Of a stretch of DNA of 64,000 bases, positions 92 to 13,680 are shown one piece after another. Below the pieces are notes generated by a model, which was given only the letters and a program-made list of their open reading frames with translations, did not search any database and was not told where the DNA came from. The stretch lies in the sequence record OZ035759.1; one strand, given 5' to 3'. The first letter of the stretch is position 1. The number at the start of each line of letters is the position of its first letter. Made by a program: the position numbers and the translations under genes. Source of the DNA: Mosigvirus mar005p1.

Positions 92-516
92 TGTATCTTA
101 TCCCTGAATCTTATGAATTGGTACTCGAAAATGTCGAAGCACTTATTCCTGAAGCACAGGGCCGAATCGATGCATTGTCTTCTGCTCTCGATATTGACGA
201 TATAAATACTATTATCGAGAACATGCTTGAAACTGAAACGGATTTAGCTGTTGCAATGGCTTCCATTATTAATGAAGAACAGTTAAATGAGTTTATCGTT
301 AAACATGTTTCTTCTCGTGGTGAAGTCACCCGCACTAAAGACCGTAAAACTCGTGAACGTAACGCGTTCCAAACAACTGGTCTTTCTAAAGCAAAACGTA
401 GACAAATCGCTCGTAAGGTCGTTAAAGCTAAAAAAGCTAACCCTTCAGGCCAAGTTAAAGGCTTGCGTAAGCGTAAAAAGGCTCTTAAACGTCGTAAAGC
501 ATTAGGATTAAGCTAA
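91..516 (+). CDS. 68: prohead core protein gp68
   Basis: 141 aa ORF, same length and position as T4 gp68; basic Lys/Arg-rich C-terminus; start overlaps stop of gene 67. Confidence 0.75.
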
Positions 517-3941: not shown

Positions 3942-3971
3942 ATAGTATCACATACCAAATACGTTGTAAAC
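3942..3971 (-). promoter_or_regulatory. T4 early-type promoter (GTTTAC -35, TGnTACTAT extended -10)
   Basis: Minus-sense GTTTAC at 3971-3966, 18 bp spacer, TACTAT at 3947-3942. Confidence 0.45.
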
Positions 3972-3977
3972 AATCTT

Positions 3978-3985
3978 TATAAATA
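3978..3985 (+). promoter_or_regulatory. T4-type late promoter upstream of gene 24
   Basis: Exact TATAAATA 28 bp upstream of ATG 4013. Confidence 0.55.
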
Positions 3986-4012
3986 ATCTATATCACATAA
4001 GGAAAAAATGCA

Positions 4013-5328: not shown

Positions 5329-6327
5329 TTATGATACTAATTCAATCCATGCAGGACGCAGAACATCTTGCACCATTCGGACTAATTCTTTCTTAACAAG
5401 ATTCGGATTATCAGATGATGTTAATACAATACCTTCACGAGAAGTTTCTTCCAGAATATCTTGAACAGTCAATCCCATCACTTTGCCAAAATCTTTTGGC
5501 GTTACAGTCCCAATCTTAGAAATCACATTATTAACACGATTTAATGTAACATAACAAGCTAGAACATCAAGCAAGTTTTTGTCAATTTCGGTTAATGGAA
5601 CCTGAGTTTTAATAGGCTTATCAGACTTTTTCTTTTCACTGAATTTAGAGTTCTTGCACTTAATAGCTACACGAGTACCGTTTGGCAGCCATTTAGGGAA
5701 ACAAGGCTTCAGAACATAACCTTCTGCCGTATTATCGCCAATAACATTAGCGTCAAATACACAATTATTTGCTTCTACAAGGTCTTCTGACGCAGTAGCA
5801 TTATAAGCGGCTAAGACAGAATCAAGGTCATTTGGAATCATGATAAGAGCATCAAATGTGCCACGTCCAAGCATTGGTGCCATTTTAAAACCGAATTCAT
5901 TACAGAAATCTTGCATTTCGTAATCGGTCAAATACGTATTATCACCACTTTCTGTATTGATAAGGATATCGAACACATAAAAATCTTTTTCACCGTAGTC
6001 AACACCTTTCTGGATTCCACCACCAGCGAATTCACCGAATACTTGATATGATACGGCTCGAGCTGTGTACATGAATTCCTGAACGGCTTTAATAGCTTTA
6101 TCATACTTCTTGAGTACGATTTCATAACCATAAAAATCTTCTGCTGGAAGAATAGGGCCTGTGCGCTTGGCGCATGTGACGTTGTCACGTTCAATTATTA
6201 ACGAGAAGTTAGTCCCATGGATTTTCTCACGTGCTACCCAAACACCAGTAGTCAAACCATTAGTGTAGAGTTTTTCAATAAACTTAGAGTTGTAGTGGTT
6301 TTCAAGACTGCTGTATTTCTTAAACAT
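5329..6327 (-). CDS. rnlB: RNA ligase 2
   Basis: 332 aa (T4 Rnl2 334 aa); N-terminal nucleotidyltransferase lysine motif (EKIHGTNF); position after gene 24. Confidence 0.85.
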
Positions 6328-6990: not shown

Positions 6991-8409
6991 TTATGGATAT
7001 GTATAGATGATACCAGTTTCCAAAGCAGTTTTATGGATGATGTATCCATTACGTGATTCTTGAACATCAACTTCTGGATAGTCTTTCATCATCTTCTGAA
7101 GAGTGTAACGATGCAGGTAGTATTTACTATCTGGATCGTCAATTTTCCAATCTTTACCTTCTTCAGTCATTTTTTGGATTTCATCCATAACCCACCAACC
7201 GCACCAGATGTAAGCTGAAGTACGATGTGGAAGAGGATGAACATAAGGTAATTCACCTTCTGGTTCCGGAGCAACTTTATCAGTTACCTGAACTTGACCT
7301 TCTGCTGTGATAGTTTTGCTATCATAATCAGTAGCAGTAACGACGGCAGTCACTTCAATAGTTTGACTTCCAATAGATGAGGTATCAACGGTATATACAT
7401 TAGTTGACCCTTCTACAGGAGAAGAATCTTTCTTCCATGAATACGCAATTTGCGCTTCTTCTGGTGCATCAGTGACATTAGCGGTAAATGTGGCCGAAGC
7501 ATCTTGTTGAACATTAATAGAAGGAGGAGTCAATGTAACCTGTGGATTCATTGTCTTCTTATTAACCGTTAATGATACTTCATTCGAAGTAACTTCCTTT
7601 GCATCATAATCTGACGCGGTTACTTGGGCTACACATTTAATTCTTTTTACTCCACTTGTAGTTGGAGTATAGCTAAATGTAGAGTTAGTTTCTCCACCAA
7701 CCTGTGAATCATCTACATACCACTGATACGTAGCAGACGCTCCAACCGGTTGAGAAGCTAAGGCAGCAGTAAATTGAACTGGGGTTCCAATTACTCCAGC
7801 TGAAGGACTATTGGGAGTTACTGCCAACGTAGTTGTCTGCGTCTTTTTATTAACAGTCAGTGACACTTCATTAGAAGTAACGCTTAGTGCGTCATAATCT
7901 GCTGCGGTTACTTGAGCCACACACTTAATTCTTTTTACCCCGCTTTCGGCAGGAGTGTAATTGAATGTAGCGTTAGTTGCTTCGCCAACAGGAGAACCGT
8001 CAACGTACCATTGATAAGTAGCGTTTGCGCCTGATGGCTGCGAAGCTAAAGCGGCAGTAAATTCAATAGCTGTTCCGATTACTCCAACGCCAGGGCTATT
8101 AGGAGTTACAGCTAAGGTAGTCGTTTGTGTCTTGTTTTGAACTGTGATAGTTGTAGAAGCTTCTGCTGTTTCAGCTTCAGCTTCTGGAACTGTATTTGTT
8201 GCAACTACTTTAATAGTCTTTTGACCTGCAGGTCCTTTTAGTACATAACTAAAAGTTGCTTCAGCTCCATCTTGCGGAACATCATCTACAGTCCAAGCAT
8301 ATGTAATAGTTCCACCTCCAGTTTCACCACTGGGAGTAGCAGTAAACTGCTTAGTCTCATCTATAACTCCAGTAGGGGTTTTAGGAGTTATATCAACTGT
8401 AAAAGCCAT
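6991..8409 (-). CDS. hoc: highly immunogenic outer capsid protein Hoc, with an extra Ig-like domain
   Basis: 472 aa vs 376 aa in T4; N- and C-terminal sequence recognisable as T4 Hoc; contains a tandem internal ~96 aa repeat. Confidence 0.85.
   Translation of the reverse strand: MAFTVDITPKTPTGVIDETKQFTATPSGETGGGTITYAWTVDDVPQDGAEATFSYVLKGPAGQKTIKVVATNTVPEAEAETAEASTTITVQNKTQTTTLAVTPNSPGVGVIGTAIEFTAALASQPSGANATYQWYVDGSPVGEATNATFNYTPAESGVKRIKCVAQVTAADYDALSVTSNEVSLTVNKKTQTTTLAVTPNSPSAGVIGTPVQFTAALASQPVGASATYQWYVDDSQVGGETNSTFSYTPTTSGVKRIKCVAQVTASDYDAKEVTSNEVSLTVNKKTMNPQVTLTPPSINVQQDASATFTANVTDAPEEAQIAYSWKKDSSPVEGSTNVYTVDTSSIGSQTIEVTAVVTATDYDSKTITAEGQVQVTDKVAPEPEGELPYVHPLPHRTSAYIWCGWWVMDEIQKMTEEGKDWKIDDPDSKYYLHRYTLQKMMKDYPEVDVQESRNGYIIHKTALETGIIYTYP
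7558..8133 (-). repeat. tandem duplication of an Ig-like domain inside hoc (two ~288 bp copies)
   Basis: Protein residues 93-188 and 189-284 are near-identical (KTQTTTLAVTPNSP...RIKCVAQVTA.DYDA..VTSNEVSLTVNK); DNA copies diverged. Confidence 0.8.
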
Positions 8410-8418
8410 AAGTTATCC

Positions 8419-9087
8419 TTATTTTAATGTTACGAAAGAAGAATTACGAGTTTCACGAATTAGAACTGATCCATCGCGATTAATATAATAAATTAAGCTA
8501 AATAATGTTTGGTGAGCAGAAGCATGCACAAAACTGGTTGGGCGAGATTTCCAATCTGGAGTTTCGGCTATCCATTGATAAATCCACCAAGGAACAGTAA
8601 CATATCCCGGGCCTTTGCCTAATTTAATGAGTGTAGGACTAAAATTTTCAGGCAGAACAAATTTTACTTCTTTATTTACCTCTGACTCAGGCTCTTTTTC
8701 AGATTCAACAACCTGAGTAATTGCTTCTTCGAATTTATCATGGTCGAATTCTTTTTCTTGTTCGACAACTTCTAATACTTCAACTTGTTCTGTTGGAGAA
8801 TCAAACAACAGAATAGCTTCTTCTTTAACTTCTTCGTTGGTGAAATTAACACCGTCCACATCATCTGCGGCAGTAATTAAATCGGTGATAGATAATCCAT
8901 CAGTTTCAGGTAATGGTTCATCAGCCAGTGCGTTAAGAGCTTCTTCGATATCAATAACAATATTATCGAATGATTTTGTTTTCTTAACACTAATGCCAAA
9001 TTGTTCCGCATATTCAAACAGTTTAGCTTTGGCTTCCTTTTTATCAGAAAGAGCACGTAACTCTTCAATATAGTCTTTATCGATCAT
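8419..9087 (-). CDS. inh: inhibitor of prohead protease (Inh-like)
   Basis: 222 aa acidic protein (T4 Inh 226 aa) in the conserved slot after hoc; assignment by position and composition. Confidence 0.6.
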   Translation of the reverse strand: MIDKDYIEELRALSDKKEAKAKLFEYAEQFGISVKKTKSFDNIVIDIEEALNALADEPLPETDGLSITDLITAADDVDGVNFTNEEVKEEAILLFDSPTEQVEVLEVVEQEKEFDHDKFEEAITQVVESEKEPESEVNKEVKFVLPENFSPTLIKLGKGPGYVTVPWWIYQWIAETPDWKSRPTSFVHASAHQTLFSLIYYINRDGSVLIRETRNSSFVTLK

Positions 9088-9100
9088 GATATTTCCTCAT

Positions 9101-9108
9101 TATAAATA
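9101..9108 (+). promoter_or_regulatory. T4-type late promoter upstream of the seg-like gene and uvsW
   Basis: Exact TATAAATA 17 bp upstream of ATG 9125. Confidence 0.5.
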
Positions 9109-9124
9109 TAACTATATTTATTAC

Positions 9125-9868
9125 ATGGAAAAGAGTATGTATCACTTTGTTTATGAGACCGTAAATTTAATTAATGGTAAAAAGTACATTGGCAAACATT
9201 CTACAGAAAATTTAAATGATTCGTATCTAGGGTCAGGTGTTGCCTTAAATCGCGCTATCAAAAAATACGGAGAAGAATCATTTAAACGTTCAATAATTAA
9301 ACAATTTGAAACTTCCGCTGAAGCTTTAGAATACGAAGCTCAGTTAGTAACAGAGGATTTGGTCAAATCTAATGAGTATTATAATATGCGCCAAGGCGGT
9401 GAAGGTGGAAGGTATAAGTACACCGAAGCTGATAAGACTAAAATGTCTAATAGTGCTAAAGAACGAATAAAGAGGCTTGGTCATAATCTTTTAGGAAAAC
9501 ACAGATCGGAAGAAACAAAAAGAAAACTATCTGAAACAAATAAACGTCGATACTCTGAAGACCCAACATGCCACGGGCGGTATGGTACAGGAAAGCCAAA
9601 GATTGATAAAATTAAAGGTCCTAAAAATCCTACAACTCTAAATAAAATTTGTGTTAACAACGGTAAAGAAAACAGATTTATATCAGCCGAGGACCCGATG
9701 CCTGAAGGATTTGTAAAAGGAATGGTCCAACTTAATAGAAAATCTAGAAAGGGCTGTGAAGTAAAACCTACGACCACCGGCAGAATATGGGTAAATAACG
9801 GGGCTATAAATAAATTAGTAAATCCGTTATCCATCCCAGATGGATATGTTAAAGGCCGTTTAAGGTAA
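9125..9868 (+). CDS. GIY-YIG homing endonuclease (Seg-like) with NUMOD3 DNA-binding repeats
   Basis: N-terminal VYETVNLINGKKYIGK (GIY-YIG); C-terminal KICVNNG...PEGFVKG and RIWVNNG...PDGYVKG (NUMOD3-like); ORF track start 9086 rejected because it would contain the promoter. Confidence 0.75.
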   Translation: MEKSMYHFVYETVNLINGKKYIGKHSTENLNDSYLGSGVALNRAIKKYGEESFKRSIIKQFETSAEALEYEAQLVTEDLVKSNEYYNMRQGGEGGRYKYTEADKTKMSNSAKERIKRLGHNLLGKHRSEETKRKLSETNKRRYSEDPTCHGRYGTGKPKIDKIKGPKNPTTLNKICVNNGKENRFISAEDPMPEGFVKGMVQLNRKSRKGCEVKPTTTGRIWVNNGAINKLVNPLSIPDGYVKGRLR

Positions 9869-9873
9869 TTATT

Positions 9874-11388
9874 ATGACAGATATTAAAGTACATTTTCAT
9901 GATTTTAGCCATGTAAGAATTGAATGCGACGAAAGCGTGTTCTATGAATTACGCGACTTTTTTAGCTTTGAAGCCGATGGGTACAAATTCAACCCGCGTT
10001 ACAAATATGGGAACTGGGATGGTAGAATTCGACTTTTAGATTACAGTCGTTTGTTACCATATGGACTTGTAGGACAAATAAAAAAGTTCTGTAACAATAT
10101 GAGTTATTCTGTATGGATTGACCCTAAAATCTTTGAGACCGAAGACCTTACCAGGGAAGATTTTGACACATGGCTTTCTAAACAAGAAATTTATTCCGGC
10201 AATGCCAAAATCGAACCACATTGGTATCAAAAAGATGCAGTATATGAAGGACTAGTTAATCGTCGTCGAATTTTAAACCTTCCGACATCAGCAGGTAAAT
10301 CACTAATCCAAGCACTTTTAGCTCGGTATTATCTAGAGAACTATGAAGGTAAAATTCTCATTATCGTCCCTACAACAGCATTGACAACCCAGATGGCTAA
10401 TGATTTTGTTGATTATCGATTGTTTAGTCATTCGATGATTAAGAAAATTGGCGGTGGTGCCGATAAAGCGGACAAATCTAAAAACGACGCTCCAATTATT
10501 GTTGGCACATGGCAAACAGTAGTTAAGCAGCCTAAAGAATGGTTCTCTCAGTTCGGTATGATGATGAACGATGAATGCCACTTAGCAACAGGCAAAAGTA
10601 TTTCTTCAATCATTGCAGGATTAAATAATTGCATGTTTAAATTCGGTTTATCCGGCTCATTAAGAGACGGAAAAGCCAATGTAATGCAGTACGTAGGTAT
10701 GTTCGGCGAAATCTTCCGTCCTGTTAGCACGTCTAAATTAATGGAAGACGGTCAGGTAACTGAGCTTAAGATTAATAGTATTTTCCTTCGTTATCCAGAC
10801 GAATTCGCCACCAAATTAAAAGGTAAAACATACCAAGAAGAAGTTAAAATTATTACCGGACTAAAACGACGTACAAAGTGGATTGCTCAACTTTCAGTAA
10901 AATTGGCTAAGAAAGACGAGAACGCCTTTGTAATGTTTAAACACGTTACACACGGTAAAGAAATATTTGAAGCTATTAAAGAGCTTGGATACGAAAAAGT
11001 TTATTACGTATCAGGTGAAGTTGATACTGAAACACGTAATGCGCTTAAAGTCATGGCAGAAAATGGTAAAGGCATTATTATTGTTGCATCATATGGAGTA
11101 TTCTCTACTGGTATTTCAGTCAAGAATCTTCATCATGTTATTTTTGCCCATGGTGTTAAATCAAAAATTATCGTACTTCAAACCGTAGGTCGCGTGCTTC
11201 GTAAGCATGGTTCTAAAGCTGTTGCTACAGTTTGGGATCTCATCGACGATGCAGGTGTAAAACCTAAATCATTAAATACTAAAAAGAAGTATACTCATCT
11301 TAATTACTTGTTAAAACACGGTATTGATCGTATCCAACGTTACGCTGATGAGAAATTTAACTATGTAATGAAAACAATTAATTTATAA
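9874..11388 (+). CDS. uvsW: UvsW RNA-DNA and DNA-DNA helicase
   Basis: 504 aa; SF2 helicase motifs; sequence recognisable as T4 UvsW; followed by uvsW.1. Confidence 0.9.
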   Translation: MTDIKVHFHDFSHVRIECDESVFYELRDFFSFEADGYKFNPRYKYGNWDGRIRLLDYSRLLPYGLVGQIKKFCNNMSYSVWIDPKIFETEDLTREDFDTWLSKQEIYSGNAKIEPHWYQKDAVYEGLVNRRRILNLPTSAGKSLIQALLARYYLENYEGKILIIVPTTALTTQMANDFVDYRLFSHSMIKKIGGGADKADKSKNDAPIIVGTWQTVVKQPKEWFSQFGMMMNDECHLATGKSISSIIAGLNNCMFKFGLSGSLRDGKANVMQYVGMFGEIFRPVSTSKLMEDGQVTELKINSIFLRYPDEFATKLKGKTYQEEVKIITGLKRRTKWIAQLSVKLAKKDENAFVMFKHVTHGKEIFEAIKELGYEKVYYVSGEVDTETRNALKVMAENGKGIIIVASYGVFSTGISVKNLHHVIFAHGVKSKIIVLQTVGRVLRKHGSKAVATVWDLIDDAGVKPKSLNTKKKYTHLNYLLKHGIDRIQRYADEKFNYVMKTINL

Positions 11389-11413
11389 GGGCTTCGGCCC
11401 TTAGGAGATAAAA

Positions 11414-11647
11414 ATGGTACTTGAATTTAAACAATTTTTATACGAAGCATCTATTGACGAATTCATGGGTAAAATTGCTAGTTGTCATACCCTAGAAGGG
11501 CTTGAAGAATTGGAAGCTTATTATAAGAAACGTATAAAAGAAACGGAATTAAAAGATACAGATGATATTTCTGTCAGGGATGCCTTAGCAGGTAAGCGTG
11601 CCGAACTTGAAGGCGACGATGATGAGGATGTGGAAGAAGACTTCTAA
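11414..11647 (+). CDS. uvsW.1: UvsW.1 small acidic protein
   Basis: 77 aa (T4 76 aa) with GGAG SD; acidic C-terminus. Confidence 0.75.
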   Translation: MVLEFKQFLYEASIDEFMGKIASCHTLEGLEELEAYYKKRIKETELKDTDDISVRDALAGKRAELEGDDDEDVEEDF

Positions 11648-11650
11648 TTA

Positions 11651-11681
11651 AAAAAAAAGGCCCGACCTTTTTGGAAGGGCC
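11651..11681 (-). terminator. candidate terminator for minus-strand transcripts
   Basis: GGCCC...GGGCC inverted repeat preceded on plus strand by A9 (T-run on the minus strand). Confidence 0.4.
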
Positions 11682-11707
11682 AAAAACCATAGGCAAAAAA
11701 GGTAACA

Positions 11708-11875
11708 CTATAGTAAAAGTTGGGTTTCGTTCAATTGCTCTTCTGAACTTTCTGAAACCGGCAATTGTTGGACATAGTTATAACAAGGACCAGGATGTGC
11801 TGGGCCTTTGTCTGTTTCAACAACCAATGCAGAATCGATTGGAGTTTTACAGACAACACAAATCTTATCTGACAT
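11708..11875 (-). CDS. small Cys-containing protein (possible zinc ribbon), absent from the ORF track
   Basis: 55 aa ORF MSDKICVVCKTP...GPCYNY with strong SD AGGAGG 6 nt upstream; below the track's 60 aa cut-off; antisense plus ORF 11671..11877 is probably spurious. Confidence 0.5.
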   Translation of the reverse strand: MSDKICVVCKTPIDSALVVETDKGPAHPGPCYNYVQQLPVSESSEEQLNETQLLL

Positions 11876-13668: not shown

Positions 13669-13676
13669 TATTTATA
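13669..13676 (-). promoter_or_regulatory. late promoter for gene 26 (TATAAATA on the minus strand)
   Basis: Plus TATTTATA = minus TATAAATA, 19 bp upstream of gene 26 start. Confidence 0.55.
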
Positions 13677-13680
13677 AATA
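13673..13680 (+). promoter_or_regulatory. late promoter for gene 51
   Basis: TATAAATA 18 bp upstream of ATG 13698; overlaps the divergent promoter in the palindrome TATTTATAAATA. Confidence 0.6.

Follow-up and report, generated by a model that had tools for sequence, protein, structure and literature searches.

Between inh and uvsW of a T-even phage of the RB69-like (Mosigvirus) kind lies a compact open reading frame, which raises the questions of what the gene is, whether it can still move and how uvsW keeps its late expression beside it. The window analyzed here is a stretch of 64,000 nucleotides from Mosigvirus mar005p1 (OZ035759.1), and the features of the locus are collected in Table 1. 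Comparison with relatives points, with high probability, to positions 9137-9868 as a SegE-family free-standing GIY-YIG homing endonuclease gene in a Mosigvirus, which would home by way of a cut in the 5' end of uvsW.

Table 1 Features of the inh-uvsW locus (positions in the window)
Feature	Position	Strand	Basis
inh (prohead protease inhibitor), left neighbor	8419..9087	-	ORF; relatives' annotation as inh
T4-type late promoter octamer TATAAATA, resident uvsW promoter	9101..9108	+	sequence; identical in empty-site Mosigviruses
Late-promoter-like octamer AATAAATA (7 of 8), facing inh	9115..9122	-	read from sequence
737-bp insert absent from empty-site phages	9129..9865	+	alignments with OLB35, RB69 and six other empty-site Mosigviruses
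SegE-type homing endonuclease CDS, 243 aa	9137..9868	+	49% identity to T4 SegE, identical N-terminus; relatives' annotated starts
GIY-YIG catalytic domain (aa 1-92)	9137..9412	+	Pfam; profile match to I-TevI 1MK0; AF2/Foldseek
NUMOD3-like two-helix element (aa 93-132 of 243-aa form)	9413..9532	+	Pfam below cut-off; predicted helices
C-terminal repeat copy 1 (aa 165-198, PTTLNKICVNNGKENRFISAEDPMPEGFVKGMVQ), presumed DNA-binding	9629..9730	+	internal repeat; conserved in T4 SegE
C-terminal repeat copy 2 (aa 211-243, PTTTGRIWVNNGAINKLVNPLSIPDGYVKGRLR), presumed DNA-binding beta-hairpin	9767..9865	+	internal repeat
Second TATAAATA, candidate late promoter for uvsW	9805..9812	+	codons A-I-N-K of repeat 2; 61 nt upstream of uvsW ATG
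Insert-linked tract: uvsW ribosome-binding region and first 15 codons	9866..9918	+	fixed-difference scan
uvsW helicase gene, right neighbor, inferred target gene	9874..11388	+	ORF; annotation in relatives

A sequence-only reading of the same DNA had recognized, between inh and uvsW, a free-standing GIY-YIG gene of the T4 Seg type, and Pfam, PHROG, homology to T4 SegE and the ORF map all agree with it. Specifically, the protein matches Pfam SegE_GIY-YIG (PF19835; 29.7 bits, gathering cut-off 25), Pfam GIY-YIG (PF01541; 25.8 bits, cut-off 22.6, aa 20-88 of the 260-aa form) and PHROG 314, 'homing endonuclease' (E=3e-43). BLASTP aligns residues 1-242 with T4 SegE (E=8e-77) with one 51-residue gap in SegE; identity is 66% in the GIY-YIG domain, 67% in the C-terminal two-repeat region and 49% overall. 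The reading had overlooked the canonical segE locus: in T4, segE (formerly hoc.2; NP_049795; PF19835) fills the same inh (hoc.1)/uvsW gap (PMC2988022, Table 1) in the same orientation; it too lies 49 nt from the inh start and has a left junction homologous to the one here, in a Tequatrovirus rather than a Mosigvirus. PMC2330249 and PMC2988022, both citing Kadyrov 1997, report that RB30 and RB52 are cleaved by T4 SegE in their inh(hoc.1)/uvsW region, the target being the 5' region of uvsW in phages without segE, and that SegE homes at nearly 100% efficiency with co-conversion of the flanks. Because T4 segE shares both gap and geometry and its homing there is published, the gene is best read as a SegE homologue at the known segE position rather than as a novel placement. 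In the window, the coding sequence begins 49 nt from the inh start and ends 5 nt short of uvsW; no terminator-like site was found between the endonuclease gene and uvsW, and a tblastn search of the 64 kb with the protein, looking for paralogues, matched only the gene itself.

The catalytic domain places the protein firmly in the GIY-YIG superfamily. While a single-sequence search of the PDB returned nothing relevant beyond HSP70 noise, a profile of 11 sequences found the catalytic domain of I-TevI (1MK0, E=9e-13). The AF2 model has pLDDT >97 over aa 1-80, its top Foldseek matches are I-TevI 1MK0 and 1LN0 (probability 1.0, TM 0.63 on target), and both analyses recover the superfamily's fold of a three-stranded sheet plus helices. 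The motif tyrosines Y6 (FVY) and Y17 (KYIG) align to Y6 and Y17 of I-TevI and are invariant in 43 Seg-like homologues, as are E67, which falls one column off I-TevI E75 in the ungapped HMM alignment, and N83, which aligns to N90; indeed, all residues invariant across the 43 are present in the window protein. The exception is the arginine. In the column of I-TevI R27, the protein has S29 and T4 SegE G29, and residues 24-34 of the model form a loop where I-TevI has the R27-bearing helix alpha1. The sequence-only reading had named the absence of the catalytic Arg or Glu as grounds for refutation; the Glu is there as E67, and the Arg has no counterpart. As a refutation, this absence misleads, because the biochemically active T4 SegE has Gly and the 43 homologues share no invariant Arg. 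S29 is thus a weak objection to activity, since active T4 SegE shares the non-Arg state, which is a mark of the subfamily and not evidence of inactivity. A literature search on how Arg27 is treated in Seg proteins gave nothing usable. The suggested alignment with I-TevI and the Seg proteins therefore succeeds for the Tyr, Glu and Asn of I-TevI (by profile) but not for Arg27, and for SegE over nearly the whole protein, while the other Seg proteins align at about 30-42% identity over the N-terminal half only. The gene is real and probably active, a diverged relative of phage T4 SegE.

The DNA-binding modules differ from those first proposed, which were two C-terminal NUMOD3-like motifs. Pfam NUMOD3 (PF07460) gives only one, in mid-protein and below its cut-off of 20.4 bits (17.1 bits for the whole protein, 19.3 for the fragment); many homologues aligning at this stretch carry precomputed PF07460 matches, and AF2 predicts helices there at 97-114 and 125-141. 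The element lies, with a Pro/Gly/Lys-rich spacer, inside the stretch opposite the 51-residue gap of T4 SegE, and this linker difference could alter spacing or specificity; conversely, the window protein is missing a 12-aa C-terminal tail found in T4 SegE. The C-terminal repeat is another motif, PTTxxxIxVNNGxxN...P[ED]G[FY]VKG, and its two copies give an internal repeat score of 71 as compared with 19+-4 for shuffles. Copy 1 has low pLDDT, and copy 2 has high pLDDT with strands at 217-220 and 225-228. Searched in isolation, the C-terminal repeats matched no Pfam family, and their sole match among the PHROGs is copy 2 to PHROG 10820 (HNH endonuclease C-terminus).

Comparison of the junction with insert-less relatives, which the sequence-only reading had recommended, defines an optional insert of 737 bp. 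Its boundaries (...ACATGG|AAAAGAG...TTTAAGG|TAATT) carry a 2-nt GG ambiguity; with 8 nt ahead of the ATG and its end at the last sense codon, it is essentially the ORF alone, and it separates the resident late promoter of uvsW from that gene's ribosome-binding site. The insert is rare. Of 667 matching phage records, 10 cover it, and the site is empty in RB69 and in most of the rest; at >=95% identity the count is 10 of 157 records, and 28 of 31 IMG/VR T4-like loci are empty at inh/uvsW. The ORF is nonetheless intact in all eight carriers (the window and seven other phages), in which 18 codon differences are synonymous and 2 non-synonymous, and it is under purifying selection. Near-identical copies are annotated 'homing endonuclease' in about ten GenBank phages.

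The same empty sites bear on the promoters. A late promoter octamer, TATAAATA, does stand at 9101-9108 as first noted, but it is not the endonuclease's own, as the reading had it: the same TATAAATA is found in every empty-site phage examined, and its position is conserved as GTATAAATAT in 30 T4-like loci. Empty sites across T4-like genera carry the octamer; it is a pre-existing resident promoter belonging to the divergent inh/uvsW pair, and the insert landed downstream of it. Most other T4-like genera have a perfect TATAAATA (TATTTATA when read on the + strand) at the equivalent of 9115-9122, the partner octamer in this back-to-back pair of divergent promoters. The further claim that uvsW lacks a late promoter nearby holds for the 5-nt gap only, since the ORF contains a perfect TATAAATA at 9805-9812. 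Five of five SegE-type alleles examined, T4 included, have [T/A]ATAAATA at these A-I-N-K codons; T4 reads AATAAATA in place of the perfect TATAAATA seen here. A lone TATAAATA can occur by chance in AT-rich DNA; the window holds 16 where 7.2 are expected. In T4, UvsW is expressed from a late promoter (PMC3016281), and a T4 review states that segE contains an embedded promoter for the downstream gene, arguing that such promoters favor keeping the endonuclease gene (PMC2988022).

A natural signature of homing lies in the flanks. All fixed differences between eight insert-bearing and eight empty genomes are confined to 9866-9918, where the groups differ from each other by 9-11 changes per 55 nt and vary within themselves by 0-3; in carriers, this tract has about 9 mostly synonymous substitutions. 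Distance matrices of the right flank link uvsW 9921-10400 to the insert and lose the linkage by 10401-10890, whereas on the left, insert-bearing and empty phages are intermixed at inh, the window being nearest to the empty-site phage AV116. Linkage thus extends ~500 nt into uvsW and not at all into inh, the pattern that homing from a cut in uvsW would leave. T4 and RB5, compared with four closely similar empty-site Tequatrovirus contigs (AV120 was left out, its anchor string not being found), repeat this pattern, their carrier-specific substitutions crowding on one side only, in the 5' end of uvsW. OLB35, which is without the insert, has the carriers' right-flank haplotype; linkage is therefore not absolute, and ordinary recombination also shapes the region. 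We infer that 9866-9918 is, or adjoins, the recognition or cleavage site for homing and makes the carrier refractory, though it could instead have hitch-hiked from the original donor and play no part in immunity. The expectation that the locus is a likely site of marker exclusion is accepted as part of the correct core of the sequence-only reading.

These data are compatible with a model in which the endonuclease gene would be transcribed late in infection from the TATAAATA at 9101-9108. Upon co-infection with an insert-less relative, the enzyme would bind through its NUMOD3-like helices and the two C-terminal NNG...PxGxVKG repeats and introduce a double-strand break into the 5' end of that phage's uvsW. 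Repair by recombination with the carrier genome would then copy the endonuclease gene together with a variable part of uvsW into the recipient, an intronless homing that would be visible as localized marker exclusion. The carrier itself would be spared, or less well cut, through the substitutions in its own uvsW 5' end (9866-9918), and late expression of uvsW would be kept by read-through from 9101-9108 together with the embedded octamer at 9805-9812.

The ATG-started ORF does run from 9086 to 9868 on the + strand (260 aa), as the sequence-only reading stated, and 9086 is the first ATG in the ORF track, so the long form might be the true product, overlapping the inh start and expressed by a non-late promoter. 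That is very improbable, however: its first 17 codons are the conserved divergent promoter region, unchanged in empty-site phages; a transcript from the octamer at 9101-9108 would begin downstream of 9086; and T4 SegE and other family members start at the 9137 position or within a few codons of it, the T4 start codon being the exact equivalent, with an identical MYHFVYET. The GenBank relatives examined are annotated from 9137 or 9125, none from 9086, in keeping with the two starts that the reading had favored. The best reading is 9137-9868, with the in-frame ATG at 9125 as an alternative start, and the 5' extension from 9086 is rejected as not real; the divergent overlap of its ATG (9086-9088) with the inh start codon (CAT, 9085-9087), also noted earlier, is there and trivial. 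That the gene is a group I intron-encoded endonuclease, the label 'group I intron endonuclease' given to it in one GenBank relative (KAW3E185), deserves practically no credence, even though the catalytic domain is homologous to that of I-TevI. Both neighboring genes are complete and the insert interrupts neither of them, empty sites show an insert that is essentially ORF alone, and Rfam families including group I introns gave no match at E<=1 across 8300-11800; the intron assignment was rejected on this anatomy.

A weightier alternative, albeit an unlikely one, is a gene that is retained but immobile, having lost site-specific cleavage and being kept for the promoter and ribosome-binding context of uvsW or for another role such as DNA binding or regulation. 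The canonical Arg that cannot be aligned, the rarity of the insert at >=95% identity and the uvsW late-promoter octamer embedded at 9805-9812, of the kind that the review holds to favor retention (PMC2988022), would all fit such a history. Against it, T4 SegE is active without the same Arg (PMC2330249), and every residue invariant in the Seg-like homologues is kept. Additionally, the excess of synonymous over non-synonymous differences spans the whole ORF, nuclease domain included; the upstream promoter is kept in empty sites, so uvsW would survive a precise deletion; and the combination of unrelated inh haplotypes with a common uvsW tract in carriers is hard to explain without recent mobility. 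A homing SegE-type endonuclease therefore remains the preferred reading.

Known systems help to place such an enzyme. Seg endonucleases carry out intronless homing, and SegF and SegG cause marker exclusion. Like the window gene, T4 SegA-SegG are free-standing in intergenic gaps of conserved genes, carry DNA-binding modules behind a GIY-YIG domain, rely on phage promoters that are resident or embedded and are accompanied by flank co-conversion (PMC2988022). Their loci and targets are different ones (uvsX, the tRNA region, genes 56 and 32). I-TevI, the td intron endonuclease, shares the fold, the Tyr/Glu/Asn catalytic-site residues, the modular nuclease-linker-DNA-binding design and late-promoter expression; it differs in being intron-encoded, in its zinc finger and helix-turn-helix and in carrying Arg27 on helix alpha1. 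It also represses itself at an operator resembling its homing site; when positions 9089-9140 were compared with the putative RB69 homing site in search of an operator of this style, similarity scores fell below shuffle means.

Discovery value is small, given that homing by SegE at inh/uvsW was already known in the 1990s and the kind of gene is ordinary. The results do correct the annotation (start at 9137, no intron endonuclease, an upstream promoter that is not the gene's own) and furnish a clean natural example of one-sided co-conversion from sequence data, which predicts a cut in the uvsW 5' end and possibly protective substitutions. Furthermore, four SegE-type genes (three alleles) from other phages sit in the same inh/uvsW gap: P0003 (Mosigvirus-like contig L065), P0006 (Yersinia phage MHG19), and P0007 and L045/L047 (Salmonella-phage-like). 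P0003 is 86% identical to the window protein over aa 1-92 and 84% over the NUMOD3-like region (aa 93-135), and its left junction is identical; P0003 and P0006 have one C-terminal repeat each as against two here, and P0007 and L045 are T4-like, without NUMOD3. The window allele thus combines a P0003-like N-terminal half with a T4-like two-repeat C-terminus, and the SegE family proves to keep to one site in several T4-like lineages even as its DNA-binding modules are shuffled, which could help the engineering of modular GIY-YIG nucleases or the reading of uvsW mosaicism in therapeutic T-even phages.

More speculatively, and with rather low probability, the gap may be contested by different SegE alleles (T4 type, single-repeat NUMOD3, and mosaic NUMOD3 with two repeats), each tied to its own synonymous variants in the uvsW 5' end. 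If these variants are allele-specific immunity marks and the swapped modules retune specificity, alleles could cleave and displace each other, beyond invading empty sites, and the contested gap would offer a natural series for the study of modular GIY-YIG retargeting. One example of such allele-tied variants is the codon for Arg-15 of uvsW, which is AGA in window-type carriers and CGC in their empty relatives, whereas in the T4 system the two are reversed, T4 having CGC and its empty relatives AGA.

The window comes from an RB69-like T-even phage (genus Mosigvirus); its 8400-10400 segment (2 kb) shares 98.3-99.2% identity with ten Escherichia/Shigella phage records, e.g. vB_EcoM_NBG1. The sequence-only reading had placed a GIY-YIG homing endonuclease ORF at 9086-9868. 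This ORF is present in the ORF listing, and its protein matches Pfam SegE_GIY-YIG (29.7 bits, cut-off 25), Pfam GIY-YIG (25.8 bits, cut-off 22.6) and PHROG 314 'homing endonuclease' (E=3e-43). The general interpretation is right, and the observation largely correct: a SegE-type GIY-YIG homing endonuclease gene occupies the inh-uvsW gap. It is the familiar SegE system, here in another T-even genus, and the gene counts as a new, uncharacterized SegE-family member with a mosaic domain make-up. Near-identical genes in GenBank already carry homing endonuclease annotation; across MK373782 (KAW3E185), OY726582 (NicPhage), MK047718 (p000y) and PQ480333 (NRG-P0074), the same gene is labelled 'group I intron endonuclease', 'hypothetical protein' or 'homing endonuclease'. 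The intron label, used in one record, is ruled out by the gene anatomy and by an Rfam search of the locus, which gave no match.

Features of the inh-uvsW locus and of the endonuclease it encodes
Feature	Position	Strand	Remark
hoc	6991-8409	-	
inh	8419-9087	-	left neighbour of endonuclease ORF
endonuclease ORF as listed	9086-9868	+	between inh and uvsW
inh-facing octamer AATAAATA	9122-9115	-	partner of the 9101-9108 octamer
uvsW	9874-11388	+	right neighbour, followed by uvsW.1
GIY-YIG domain	aa 1-92		
NUMOD3-like stretch	aa 93-132		Pfam below threshold
C-terminal repeat, two copies of ~34 residues	aa 165-198, 211-243		PTTxxxIxVNNGxxN...P[ED]G[FY]VKG

In T4 too, segE is flanked by inh and uvsW, and its start is 49 nt away from the start codon of inh; the window ATG at 9137 is at the same distance. 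The N-terminus MYHFVYET is identical, full-length identity is 49% (E=8e-77), and the sole large difference is a 51-residue gap on the T4 SegE side of the alignment. The left junction is homologous at the DNA level, with ACATGG followed by AAAAGAGTATG in the window and ACTCGG followed by AAAATAGTATG in T4. PMC2330249 and PMC2988022, both citing Kadyrov et al. 1997, place segE in the hoc.1(inh)-uvsW gap (Table 1 in the latter), and state that SegE cleaves this region in RB30 and RB52, phages without segE, and homes with an efficiency of almost 100%, with co-conversion of the flanks.

Alignments with phages that lack the insert (OLB35, RB69, AV116, ZQ3, Mizar, pEK20, JS09 and ST0) define it as 9129-9865 (737 bp, with a GG ambiguity). 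At least 80% of the 2-kb query is covered by only 10 of 667 matching phage records, the others matching the two flanks only. Among 31 IMG/VR loci from diverse T4-like phages, recovered with the Inh protein, 28 have an empty inh-uvsW gap of ~50 nt, one has a window-type insert and two carry a third SegE variant. A protein search added three homologues, P0003 (a Mosigvirus-like contig), P0006 (Yersinia phage MHG19) and P0007 (Salmonella-phage-like contigs); these three also lie between inh and uvsW, so the family is faithful to this site. In two Salmonella-phage-like contigs (L066 3133-5630; L067 1246-3743), uvsW is in pieces with Hint/Intein_splicing Pfam matches, a 291-aa ORF lies between the pieces and a T4-type segE homologue adjoins; this looks like an intein-interrupted uvsW beside a free-standing homing endonuclease gene.

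Translation from 9086 is not credible, as codons 1-17 would cross an intergenic promoter region that is unchanged in empty sites. The proposed alternatives, 9125 or 9137, agree with the annotation of GenBank relatives, which start at the 9137 equivalent in five records and at the in-frame 9125 in two. We favour 9137 because it matches the T4 SegE start, because the 9125 ATG is part of the pre-existing ACATGG of empty sites (T4 has ACTCGG and no ATG there), and because a GGA 7 nt upstream is kept in T4, with nothing purine-rich ahead of 9125. In empty phages (e.g. RB69, 5745-5760, corresponding to window 9125-9128 joined to 9866 onward), a 3-codon mini-ORF, ATGGTAATTTGA, directly precedes the uvsW ribosome-binding region and overlaps it; in carriers the insert interrupts this mini-ORF, and its ATG becomes the upstream ATG at 9125.

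In a profile search with the protein plus ten relatives, the catalytic domain of I-TevI is matched (1MK0, E=9e-13), and 1MK0 is also the best structural match of the AlphaFold model (probability 1.0, TM 0.63 on target; pLDDT >97 in the GIY-YIG domain). Y6, Y17 and N83 correspond to I-TevI Y6, Y17 and N90, and E67 to E75 (one column off in an ungapped alignment); none of the four varies across an alignment of 43 sequences. By contrast, I-TevI Arg27 aligns with Ser29 in this protein and with Gly29 in T4 SegE. In place of the Arg-bearing helix there is a loop, which carries the subfamily signature H21...Y30-x-G-S-G, and the 43-sequence alignment contains no invariant Arg. Lack of the catalytic Arg had been named as grounds for rejecting activity; the residue is indeed missing, but T4 SegE is demonstrably active without it, so its absence cannot serve to refute activity.

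The two C-terminal NUMOD3-like motifs of the sequence-only reading need revision. The NUMOD3-like element is central and sub-threshold (17.1 against a cut-off of 20.4 for the ORF protein; 19.3 bits on the fragment), with two helices predicted by AlphaFold at 97-114 and 125-141, and is followed by a low-confidence Pro/Gly/Lys-rich spacer. The C-terminal repeat is another motif: it scores 71 in self-alignment versus 19+-4 for shuffles, has no Pfam family, and its sole match is the C-terminal part of an HNH endonuclease PHROG. Three architectures occupy the same site: the T4 type with two repeats and a basic tail without NUMOD3, the P0003/P0006 type with NUMOD3 and one repeat, and the window type, which joins a P0003-like N-terminal half to a T4 SegE-like two-repeat C-terminus. 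P0003 is 86% identical to the window protein in aa 1-92 and 84% in aa 93-135, whereas T4 SegE is 67% identical in aa 170-243, where P0003 has no comparable match. Such mosaicism agrees with the modular make-up known for GIY-YIG homing endonucleases.

A fixed-difference scan compared eight carriers with eight empty Mosigviruses. All fixed differences fall in 9866-9918, which holds the ribosome-binding region and the first 15 codons of uvsW; a 'fixed' column at 9302, inside the insert, is an alignment artefact. Over 9866-9920 (55 nt), the distance matrix gives 9-11 differences between groups and 0-3 within them. The fixed changes are synonymous (ACA/ACT, GAT/GAC, AGC/AGT, CAT/CAC, GTA/GTG, AGA/CGC). 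The only amino-acid-changing site, uvsW codon 9 (9898-9900), is polymorphic, not fixed: carriers mostly have His (CAT/CAC), with Arg (CGC) in LF82-41, and empties have Tyr in seven and His in AV116; T4 has His, and Tyr (TAT) occurs in nearly all empties of both genera. On the other side, inh contains no fixed carrier/empty differences, its haplotypes are intermixed, and the empty phage AV116 is nearest to the window (4 differences). Further left, hoc is the long 472-aa form in the window, as in RB69, Mizar and pEK20, and a 376-aa form in six of seven other carriers examined, with a split annotation in NRG-P0074; the region just left of inh is thus mosaic among carriers. To the right, the carriers' common haplotype spans 9921-10400, and the association is lost by 10401-10890. 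OLB35 lacks the insert and has an empty-type uvsW 5' tract, yet shares the carriers' 9921-10400 haplotype (5-8 differences versus 13-33 for the remaining empties); this phage either is a recombinant from which the insert has been lost or represents the type of background first entered by it.

Such one-sidedness is expected if homing starts from a break inside uvsW: whatever lies between insert and break would always be co-converted, sequence beyond the break variably so, and the far side of the insert could recombine freely. The same asymmetry is seen in T4, whose system has been characterized by experiment: fixed differences between T4/RB5 and four empty Tequatrovirus contigs, a small control sample, are concentrated in about the first 135 nt of uvsW. 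From both patterns we infer that the enzyme probably targets the 5' end of uvsW in Mosigviruses without the insert. The carrier variants there may reduce self-cleavage, although they might instead be hitch-hiking donor sequence. That the gene is retained in an inactive state seems improbable: the ORF is intact in 8/8 carriers, its codon differences from the window (18 synonymous, 2 non-synonymous) indicate purifying selection, and the carriers' mixed inh backgrounds likewise count against inactivity.

The late-promoter octamer TATAAATA is present at 9101-9108 as claimed, but the gene does not own it: the insert did not bring it, and it is identical in 8/8 empty Mosigviruses. It is conserved as GTATAAATAT in 30 loci of other T4-like genera, paired back-to-back with an opposite-strand late-promoter octamer facing inh. 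This compact divergent pair, GTATAAATAT..TATTTATAAC (window 9089-9124; ~3950-4000, reverse strand, in L022-L051), is kept in ~30 T4-like loci of several genera amid otherwise diverging sequence; the octamer that faces inh reads AATAAATA instead of TATAAATA in the window, T4 and RB69. Because the octamer is resident in empties and a late promoter is known to drive UvsW expression in T4 (PMC3016281), the endonuclease gene sits between the uvsW late promoter and the uvsW ribosome-binding site, and is probably transcribed from that resident promoter.

For uvsW, proposed to have no late promoter of its own in its short upstream region, there is a candidate second, embedded promoter: a perfect TATAAATA within the ORF (9805-9812) that precedes the uvsW ATG by 61 nt. 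It is encoded by GCT-ATA-AAT-AAA (A-I-N-K) of the last C-terminal repeat, and [T/A]ATAAATA recurs at these codons in 5/5 SegE-type alleles examined, as TATAAATA in the window, the P0003 contig and locus L064, and as AATAAATA in T4 and L066. According to a T4 review, segE is one of the endonuclease genes in which a promoter for the next gene downstream is embedded (PMC2988022). The suggested read-through into uvsW is also plausible, since no terminator-like site was found between the two genes. An I-TevI-like autorepressor operator was sought and not found. In AT-rich DNA one octamer by itself does not prove a promoter: TATAAATA occurs 16 times in the window on both strands, against 7.2+-2.8 expected from shuffles. 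The 16 copies are consistent with a late-gene-rich T-even region, and at 13669-13680 two of them overlap on opposite strands.
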